Shown in pieces: positions 60,833 through 62,200 of a stretch of DNA of 64,000 nt. Numbering within the stretch: the first letter of the stretch is position 1; each line of letters opens with the position of its first letter. The stretch is taken from positions 334-64,333 of the forward strand of contig JBAZQX010000008.1 of the NCBI GenBank assembly GCA_041644975.1, written 5' to 3'. The notes beneath the pieces were generated by a model, which was given only the letters and a program-made list of their open reading frames with translations, was not told the DNA's origin and searched no databases. Source of the DNA: Candidatus Doudnabacteria bacterium (GTDB lineage: Bacteria > Patescibacteriota > JAQUNI01). The position numbers and the translations under genes are program-made.

Positions 60833-62200
60833 ATGCCGCACGGAACTTACGAGAGAGAGAGAGAGAGAGAGAGAGAGAGCTTCTCCCCGGTCTTCTCTTT
60901 CTCCAATCTTTTAAAGTCTTATTATAAATGCCGCAAAAACAAGCGCAAAACCCAAAGTGCCGCTATTTTTGAAATTAATTTTGAAAAAGAATTGCTGAAA
61001 TTAGAAAAGGAACTTACCGCCAAAACCTACCAGCCCGGCCCACACACCTGCTTTGTCATCACCGACCCCAAGCCAAGAGAAGTTTGGGCCGCTCCCTTTC
61101 GCGACCGCGTTGTGCACCATCTGCTCGTTTCTTTCCTTGAACCAATTTTTGAACCAAAGTTTATTTTCCATTCCTACGCTTGCCGCAAAGACAAAGGCGG
61201 ACACAAAGCCATAAAATACTTGCAAAAATCAATCCGCCAGCATCAAGCCCCCAACCAGTCGCTTTTTTACCTGCAAACCGATATCTACAGCTTTTTTATC
61301 AGTATTGATAAAAAAATTCTTTTCAGCCAAATCAGCCGCCACTGCCAAAATCCAGAAATCCTATGGCTCGCCCAAGAAATTATTTTTCAAAATCAAACTG
61401 AAAACTTTATTATCCACGGCGATAAAAATTTATTCCAAAAAATCCTGCCTCATAAATCGCTTTTTTACGCTCCAAAAGGCAAAGGTCTGCCTATTGGCAA
61501 TTTAACCAGCCAATTTTTTGCTAACGTCTATTTAAACGAGCTAGACCAATTTGCCAAACATCGGCTTAAATGCCGCTATTATTTCCGCTATATGGACGAC
61601 ATTGTCATCCTACATCAAAATCTTGACCAGCTTTTGTTCTGGCGAGAACAGATAGACGAATTTCTGCAAGACAATTTAGCTTTAAAACTGCATCCCAAAA
61701 AACAAATTATCCAGCCCGTTAAAAACGGCATCAATTTTTTGGGCTACATTACTAAACCCGAATATTCATTAAGCCGCCAGCGGGTGGTCGCGAGCTTAAA
61801 ACGCAAACTGCATTATTTTAACAAAATTCTTAATTCTCAAACTCAATATCAGCCCGAAAAACCAAATCCTCAAACCGCCTTGCCTCTCATTTTTCCCAAA
61901 GAAATTCCCCCGTTTGCTTTTCTGCAAAAGGTCCAAGCGACCATCAACTCCTATTACGGTCACTTTCAGCACTGCCATTCTTTAAAATTAAGAAAGAGTC
62001 TTTATTATCGCTATTTCAAAGAGCTAAAAAATTACTTAGAGCCAAAGGATAAAACCTTTGGCAGTTTCATTATCAGAAAATCTTACTTAAAGATGGCGAA
62101 AGGCGAATCGCGATTTGCTATATGCGCTAGGCGATCCGCCATTTGCCAACGCCGAGGAATTTTGGGCGGAAAACGGCACGAAATCGATAGCTATTGTTGA
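60833..62200 (+). CDS. diversity-generating retroelement (DGR) reverse transcriptase
   Basis: N-terminal LLKSYYKCRKNKRK, PREVWAAPFRDRVVHHLL, SYACRKDKGGHKA, IGNLTSQ (the DGR-type I/LGxxxSQ in place of QGxxxSP) and YMDD; a cognate TR/VR pair lies adjacent. Confidence 0.85.
   Translation: MPHGTYERERERERESFSPVFSFSNLLKSYYKCRKNKRKTQSAAIFEINFEKELLKLEKELTAKTYQPGPHTCFVITDPKPREVWAAPFRDRVVHHLLVSFLEPIFEPKFIFHSYACRKDKGGHKAIKYLQKSIRQHQAPNQSLFYLQTDIYSFFISIDKKILFSQISRHCQNPEILWLAQEIIFQNQTENFIIHGDKNLFQKILPHKSLFYAPKGKGLPIGNLTSQFFANVYLNELDQFAKHRLKCRYYFRYMDDIVILHQNLDQLLFWREQIDEFLQDNLALKLHPKKQIIQPVKNGINFLGYITKPEYSLSRQRVVASLKRKLHYFNKILNSQTQYQPEKPNPQTALPLIFPKEIPPFAFLQKVQATINSYYGHFQHCHSLKLRKSLYYRYFKELKNYLEPKDKTFGSFIIRKSYLKMAKGESRFAICARRSAICQRRGILGGKRHEIDSYC
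60851..60879 (+). repeat. (GA)14 dinucleotide microsatellite inside the 5' end of the RT ORF
   Basis: gagagagagagagagagagagagagagag read directly; encodes ERERERERE. Confidence 0.9.

Follow-up and report, generated by a model that had tools for sequence, protein, structure and literature searches.

The (GA)14 tract near the 5' end of a diversity-generating retroelement (DGR) reverse transcriptase (RT) gene from Candidatus Doudnabacteria is probably a hypermutable simple-sequence repeat (SSR) lying within the translated part of the gene, where it would act as a stochastic on/off switch of the RT; we place the probability of this reading at roughly 0.7. The tract occupies the same position in a clade of related RT genes, and in sister lineages its length is polymorphic and moves the RT into or out of frame with its start codons. 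These comparative data from relatives support phase variation as the interpretation of the tract in the window (the whole 64-kb stretch of DNA analyzed here), whose RT locus is itself known from one contig (its protein cluster, P0001, has one member).

The retroelement and its GA tract

The element around the tract is a bona fide DGR, and it comprises the following features, given with their coordinates in the window and their strand.

60833 to 60850 (+): RT start codon and six-codon leader MPHGTY, the sole in-frame start before the conserved motif
60851 to 60879 (+): (GA)14G repeat, giving (ER)n in the frame of the RT, with homologous tracts of variable length in relatives; the proposed slippage-prone switch
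60880 to 60913 (+): short linker and the first conserved RT N-terminal motif, FSFSNLL (from 60893), with no in-frame ATG, GTG, or TTG
60833 to 62200 (+): DGR reverse transcriptase ORF, 455 aa (RVT_1, E = 5e-16)
62156 to 62288 (-): template repeat (TR), paired with the variable repeat
62574 to 62963 (-): accessory variability determinant (Avd), a bAvd-like four-helix-bundle protein (PF22296, E = 1.8e-19)
63101 to 63233 (-): variable repeat (VR), the 3' end of the target gene, paired with the TR
63105 to 63749 (-): DGR target gene, at least its C-terminal part, with the VR forming its 3' end and no Pfam match

The TR and VR form a 133-nt pair with 17 mismatches, all of them at TR adenines (17 of 40 adenines), and this VR is the only one in the window. 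The RT ORF, whose translation contains the LPIGNLTSQFFANVYLNELD and YMDD motifs, is identical to P0001 from a Candidatus Doudnabacteria MAG (191,576-bp contig). The RT has thousands of homologues, and bAvd genes adjoin the RTs at the loci that were fetched. The element shares with canonical DGRs such as that of Bordetella phage BPP-1 (surveyed in PMC5758913 and PMC8144416) an RT, an Avd, and a TR and VR whose mismatches are restricted to adenines. It differs from them in the orientation of the RT, which is encoded on the strand opposite to the target-avd-TR unit and converges on it, and in the SSR at the 5' end of the RT gene. The convergent layout is shared with relatives, and the opposed strands indicate that the RT is probably transcribed separately. 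At 455 aa, the window ORF compares with 390-420 aa for most homologous RTs. Its 3' tail runs into the TR on the opposite strand (62080-62200), a terminator-like hairpin lies within the ORF at 62041-62062, and the tail is probably not all functional RT.

Small hairpin-forming repeats of the families ATCCTGAAnnnnnTTCAGGAT and TGCTGAAnnnnnTTCAGCA, with GTCATCC and AAGACA flanks, are confined to intergenic spots around the DGR.

58076 to 58305: intergenic hairpin-repeat spot
60512 to 60780: intergenic hairpin-repeat spot
62375 to 62437: intergenic hairpin-repeat spot
62966 to 63058: intergenic hairpin-repeat spot

A 69-nt inverted pair (60512-60580 and 62977-63045, 91% complementary) flanks the RT, TR, and avd on both sides. 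One set of the hairpin repeats lies 40-130 nt downstream of the VR; in the Bordetella DGR, a target-recognition hairpin has reportedly been described downstream of the VR. Upstream of the RT, the gene at 59681-60517 (-) contains four repeats of ~45 nt that code for units resembling GYAWSENxGWI; it gave no Pfam match. The next gene (58350-59681, -) encodes a CarboxypepD_reg domain. After each of these two genes come the hairpin repeats that also follow the DGR genes.

Read directly from the sequence, the tract GAGAGAGAGAGAGAGAGAGAGAGAGAGAG spans 60851-60879 (+) and consists of 14 GA units and a final G, 29 nt in all. The preliminary description had reported a 29-nt GA run 18 nt past the sole in-frame ATG of the DGR RT; its coordinates and description were exact, counting from the A of ATG 60833, and 13 nt separate the end of the tract from the conserved motif. 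Between the in-frame stop at 60821 and the FSFSNLL codon at 60893, ATG 60833 is the only ATG, GTG, or TTG in the RT frame, and the 29-nt allele is in frame with it. The SSR, with 14.5 GA units, lies after the start codon and ahead of the first conserved motif; its unit is not a multiple of three nucleotides, and it is long enough to be prone to instability. No second dinucleotide repeat of at least 10 nt was found anywhere in the 64-kb window.

Selection might have acted on the poly(Glu-Arg) N-terminal tail as part of the protein, for instance through a role in RNA binding, and (ER)n is present in many homologues. The run in the window, however, uses GAG and AGA exclusively, although GAG makes up 28% of the Glu codons and AGA 28% of the Arg codons of the window. 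The probability that chance would give codons of such purity in the tract is ~1e-5, which indicates a DNA-level repeat rather than a protein-selected sequence. The length of the repeat moreover spans 0-27 units, and in another lineage (HT)n, encoded by a CA repeat, takes its place. Selection for the tail as such is, in our judgment, exceedingly improbable.

Upstream of ATG 60833 no Shine-Dalgarno-like motif was found; such motifs are present at only 5 of the 31 long ORFs of the window. A promoter and terminator scan of the window gave no convincing promoter ahead of the RT ATG. An Rfam scan of 60300-63200 at a permissive threshold returned two matches at chance level (E ~0.8), neither of them at the GA tract, and folding of the RNA from 60806-60925 gave a diffuse ensemble that was not significant (z = -1.39). 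Pairing of the GA tract with the CU-rich FSF codons downstream was considered and rejected, as these codons are without nucleotide-level conservation in relatives. In the closest tract-bearing relative (L173, encoding P0002), a perfect TTGACA stands upstream of position 426 and is followed ~18 nt later by TATTTT, whose end is 6 nt ahead of the RT ATG. At L173, this spacing suggests a leaderless mRNA.

Dinucleotide repeats in related RT genes

The best 120 homologues of the window RT (50-80% identity) come from Doudnabacteria, Gribaldobacteria, Moranbacteria, and other Patescibacteria. Among the 106 of these best 120 that have an intact N terminus, 36 have (ER)n runs, of unequal length, a short way before FSFxNLLxAYYxCRK. 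At the DNA level, the runs are pure GA tracts of 7-54 nt. Tracts at this N-terminal position are confined to the closest DGR RTs (at least 53% identity over the N-terminal region), and none was found in the more distant RTs fetched from genomes. Within the clade, the tract is kept across RTs that are merely 50-60% identical and in several CPR phyla. Among the metagenome loci, it was present in 6 of 80 among the matches listed, with a large sub-clade sparsely sampled. Dinucleotide repeats of at least 12 nt numbered 28 in 693,772 nt of related loci. All but two lie at RT genes (24 GA/AG and 2 CA), and the remaining two are minimal 12-nt runs of AT and CG.

The close relatives of the window RT differ in this feature. 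The tract of P0002 (78% identity) is 23 nt and in frame, P0004 (74%) has a 16-nt tract, which in two MAGs places the RT out of frame, P0058 (81%) has a 7-nt remnant that is in frame, and P0005 (75%) has no tract.

Directly 3' of the GA tract, GTAAA is found in L003, L004, L083, L088, L091, L137, and L166-L170, where the RT-frame reading is ESK or RVN/RVK and the third frame gives a TAA stop. The window has GAGCTTC after the tract, not GTAAA. At L137 (1398-1500; P0154, from the P0049 cluster of RTs at least 90% identical), a degenerate purine-only stretch of ~90 nt is found instead of pure GA. This stretch translates as KEKEKKKEKEERKREEREREKRKRE and looks like a decayed or stabilised microsatellite that has become fixed in frame.

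A repeat of another unit is found in a Saccharibacteria RT, which carries (CA)14 at L008 (2963-2990) and (CA)17 at L160 (1454-1487) between identical flanks. The CA tract lies four codons after the ATG and encodes (HT)n, with both alleles in frame. At the protein level, the cluster of this RT includes one truncated member. P0168 (L177), a truncated protein and the closest relative of the (CA)n RT, was considered as an out-of-frame allele and rejected, since its locus has only a CACAC remnant and an in-frame GTG. In another subclade, tracts of (GA)12-16 lie inside the RT gene, in the variable linker that joins motifs 2 and 3, and these mid-gene tracts are 24-32 nt in length.

L134, 1664 to 1687: mid-gene GA tract
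L144, 1851 to 1882: mid-gene GA tract
L145, 671 to 702: mid-gene GA tract

At L134 and L145 the N- and C-terminal halves of the RT are in different frames across the tract, and the L144 contig ends immediately after it. Judged from their sequences, the (CA)n and mid-gene (GA)n repeats of RT genes are independent in origin. The use of another repeat unit and of another position argues that what recurs is mutability of the RT frame, and not a binding site specific for GA.

Length alleles, reading frames, and start codons

Protein clusters at 90% identity were the source of the polymorphic sets. Their members show differences of one ER unit, different leader peptides, and 5'-truncated calls, and DNA was taken for two clusters. 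A megablast search among the first 12 tract loci gave no near-identical pairs. The first of the two sets, L161-L165 (P0010 cluster, 62% identical to the window RT), consists of five contigs from five sample/run accessions, of which L162 and L164 may share a dataset. Over 824 aligned columns, variation in this set is confined to the tract, with 10, 11, 8, 11, and 12 GA units. Further downstream, a few SNPs split the set into two sub-groups, and L162 and L163 differ in the VR as well. The second set, L166-L170 (P0043/P0135 cluster, Moranbacteria), comes from five assemblies and over ~3.1 kb varies only in the tract (29, 23, 51, 27, and 25 nt) and the VR, with the VRs of L168, L169, and L170 differing at scattered sites. 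In these otherwise clonal contigs, hypervariability is limited to two spots, the GA tract and the target of the DGR itself. VR differences among otherwise identical contigs indicate that the DGRs are active in those populations; the near-identical contigs are possibly from related samples.

Repeats are error-prone, and several of the sequences invite caution: P0003 and P0043 start inside the tract, the contig of L144 breaks off just past its mid-gene tract, and L003, an out-of-frame example, comes from a long-read MAG in which the repeat length may be miscalled. An assembly or sequencing artefact is nonetheless scarcely credible as an explanation for the tracts, which have unique flanks, lie on long contigs, and were recovered through different pipelines (JGI, ENA, NCBI, Logan). 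The same 11-unit allele was found in two independent assemblies of the L161-L165 set, and the 'k141' contig names presumably imply a final k-mer far longer than all of the tracts.

The length alleles have direct consequences for the reading frame. The leader of L161-L165, which reads ...ATGccttATGaattc...catca(GA)n, contains two overlapping start codons, ATG1 and ATG2, in two frames. With 10 GA units, ATG1 is in frame and the product is P0010 (411 aa), and with 12 units, ATG2 is in frame and the product is P0127 (410 aa), which has another leader peptide from the same DNA. With 8 or 11 units, no ATG, GTG, or TTG is in the RT frame, and gene callers give P0122 (311 aa), which lacks the N-terminal 100 residues. 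In L166-L170, the 29- and 23-nt tracts are in frame (P0135 and P0136), and those of 51, 27, and 25 nt are out of frame (the truncated P0133 and P0137, and P0043, annotated as 'partial'). In both sister sets the observed lengths span all three frame classes. The preliminary description had held that slippage by one GA unit would frameshift the RT and had named length polymorphism in related genomes as a check; in these relatives the polymorphism is present, and with it the RT gains or loses its frame relative to the start codon or codons.

A dual-frame leader is also found in the P0197 cluster, where MFKEYVSKIQGANE(RE)n and MVCLKNMFLKSKAPT(RE)n would arise from one DNA stretch, as seen at the protein level. 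Truncated calls in this cluster occur on at least 24 contigs versus about 10 contigs with full-length calls, likewise counted from proteins.

Thirty alleles were verified at the DNA level. An in-frame ATG lies upstream of the tract in 16 of them, one has a TTG only, and 13 are without an in-frame start. Every allele has an upstream ATG, in some frame, that is open into the tract, and in none of the 30 does a start codon fall between the tract and the motif, in keeping with the window. Tract-free relatives, by comparison, have an in-frame ATG in 117 of 136 cases, and its median distance ahead of the motif is 11 codons. Canonical initiation therefore gives access to the RT only by way of the tract, and translation of the window RT would start at ATG 60833. 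The earlier claim that no alternative start lies between the repeat and the first RT motif thus holds in the window and in all 30 alleles, and an RT start downstream of the repeat, which that description had named as a refuting observation, is not indicated by sequence in any of them.

The start codon counts bear on the possibility that the tract forms part of a 5' UTR, with the RT translated from a non-canonical downstream codon and tract length perhaps affecting transcription or mRNA structure. Such an untranslated leader would fit the lack of a Shine-Dalgarno-like motif ahead of the ATG, the conservation of GTAAA 3' of the tract whatever the frame, and the near-random distribution of frames. 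It is very unlikely, however, in view of the upstream ATG open into the tract in each allele and the lack of any ATG, GTG, or TTG after it; in addition, the mid-gene tracts are unambiguously coding, and neither an RNA family match nor a significant fold was obtained.

No excess of in-frame alleles is evident among the 30, the 13 startless alleles being close to the random-frame expectation. One way to read this is that expression is independent of frame, with the ribosome or RNA polymerase slipping on the tract, so that all lengths yield some RT and only its level is tuned. From the sequence of the tract, tRNA-Glu on GAG and tRNA-Arg on AGA would re-pair perfectly after a 2-nt shift. The share of assembled alleles without an in-frame start (~43%), the variation of VRs among out-of-frame alleles, and the out-of-frame state, as assembled, of both complete mid-gene examples are all compatible with such recoding. 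Start codons in two frames would nevertheless be pointless if frame were irrelevant, and wherever the tract has collapsed to a short remnant the frame is kept (L174, L175, and L098). We also know of no bacterial precedent for efficient recoding on dinucleotide repeats, and we regard frame-independent expression as doubtful.

The lack of an in-frame excess would also fit a microsatellite that is neutral or degenerating. In this view, mutational bias enlarged a proto-repeat in an N terminus that tolerated it, and the out-of-frame alleles represent decaying DGRs. In the closest relatives of the window RT the tract does come and go (0, 7, 16, 23, and 29 nt), and the purine-rich stretch of L137 could be taken as a degenerate relic. 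Yet the out-of-frame alleles are without other lesions over 0.8-3 kb, and the tract has persisted across RTs 50-60% identical and across several CPR phyla. SSRs are almost absent outside RT genes in the window and in 694 kb of related loci, RT genes have independently acquired repeats of another unit and at another position, and dual-frame leaders exist. Neutral growth and decay of the repeat is accordingly unlikely.

A proposed switch of diversification

In the switch that we propose, slipped-strand mispairing at replication would cause GA units to be gained or lost, and any change other than a multiple of three units would put the RT out of frame with ATG 60833. Both alternative frames meet stops soon after the tract, and an out-of-frame length would therefore yield a peptide of a few tens of residues and no RT. 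Mutagenic retrohoming from the TR into the VR would then stop and the VR would stay fixed, until a further slip restored the frame. The switch would thus be heritable, reversible, and stochastic, such that an adapted VR could be fixed in most cells and a subpopulation would go on diversifying. The 29-nt allele of the window would be 'on'. VRs differ also among contigs in which the RT is currently out of frame, which points to recent RT activity there, and hence to switching or to leakiness. We infer for this scheme that out-of-frame alleles lack RT function and that a clone can switch back; the rate and selective benefit of switching are likewise matters of inference. Beyond the window, we lean toward the view that the DGR RTs of CPR bacteria have repeatedly gained dinucleotide microsatellites, either start-proximal (GA)n or (CA)n or internal (GA)n and some of them dual-frame, as selected, reversible, and stochastic switches of the diversifier.

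The oipA gene of Helicobacter pylori, with its CT repeats, is an example of translational phase variation by an SSR. Contingency loci with repeats in the 5' coding region have been reviewed (PMC11868660, PMC3315296). The tract described here resembles them in having a unit that is not a multiple of three, placed a few codons after the start, in varying in length between otherwise identical strains (here, the contigs of relatives), and in having out-of-frame alleles that run into early stops. It differs in that the host is an environmental, uncultivated CPR bacterium and not a host-adapted pathogen, and in that the gene encodes the RT of a retroelement and is not a surface or LPS gene; switching here is deduced by comparing sequences.

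In the multi-start translational switch of the lic1 type in Haemophilus influenzae, start codons in two frames precede the repeat. The SSRs of H. influenzae have been reviewed (PMC2651432). The two-frame leaders of P0010/P0127 and of the P0197 cluster are similar in arrangement, and two of the three length classes would be expressed. The leader in the window, in contrast, has one start, which would make the switch two-state, and the repeat is built of dinucleotides rather than tetranucleotides. Phasevarions, that is, phase-variable DNA methyltransferases (PMC5909438, PMC7383803), offer a further parallel as SSR switches on a cytoplasmic enzyme with heritable downstream phenotypic consequences, although the downstream effect proposed here is diversification of the sequence of one target protein and not genome-wide methylation.

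The mechanism would be that of classical SSR phase variation, and what appears to be new, as far as the open-access literature goes, is the gene that is switched and the organisms in which this occurs. The open-access DGR surveys consulted, and a Bacteroides DGR study, contain no mention of repeats in RT genes, of frameshifts, or of phase-variable control, and no link between CPR bacteria and SSR phase variation was found among the open-access papers listed. Current annotation labels the out-of-frame alleles truncated, partial, or 'hypothetical' RTs (P0122, P0133, P0134, P0137, and P0043), and DGR surveys may consequently miscount such elements or misclass them as inactive.

The control of DGR activity has yet to be explained. 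Continuous diversification erodes an adapted variable protein, and in a recent theoretical preprint silencing of the RT and its regulated activation are named as scenarios yet to be explored (10.64898/2026.02.18.706561). If the interpretation presented here is correct, the RT would be the first of any retroelement known to be phase-variable; natural on/off control of a DGR and a contingency locus in a CPR organism would likewise be described here for the first time. It would mean that a hypermutable switch governs a targeted hypermutator, by which CPR bacteria, with minimal genomes and few regulators, would spread their bets between keeping a receptor that works and searching for new ones.
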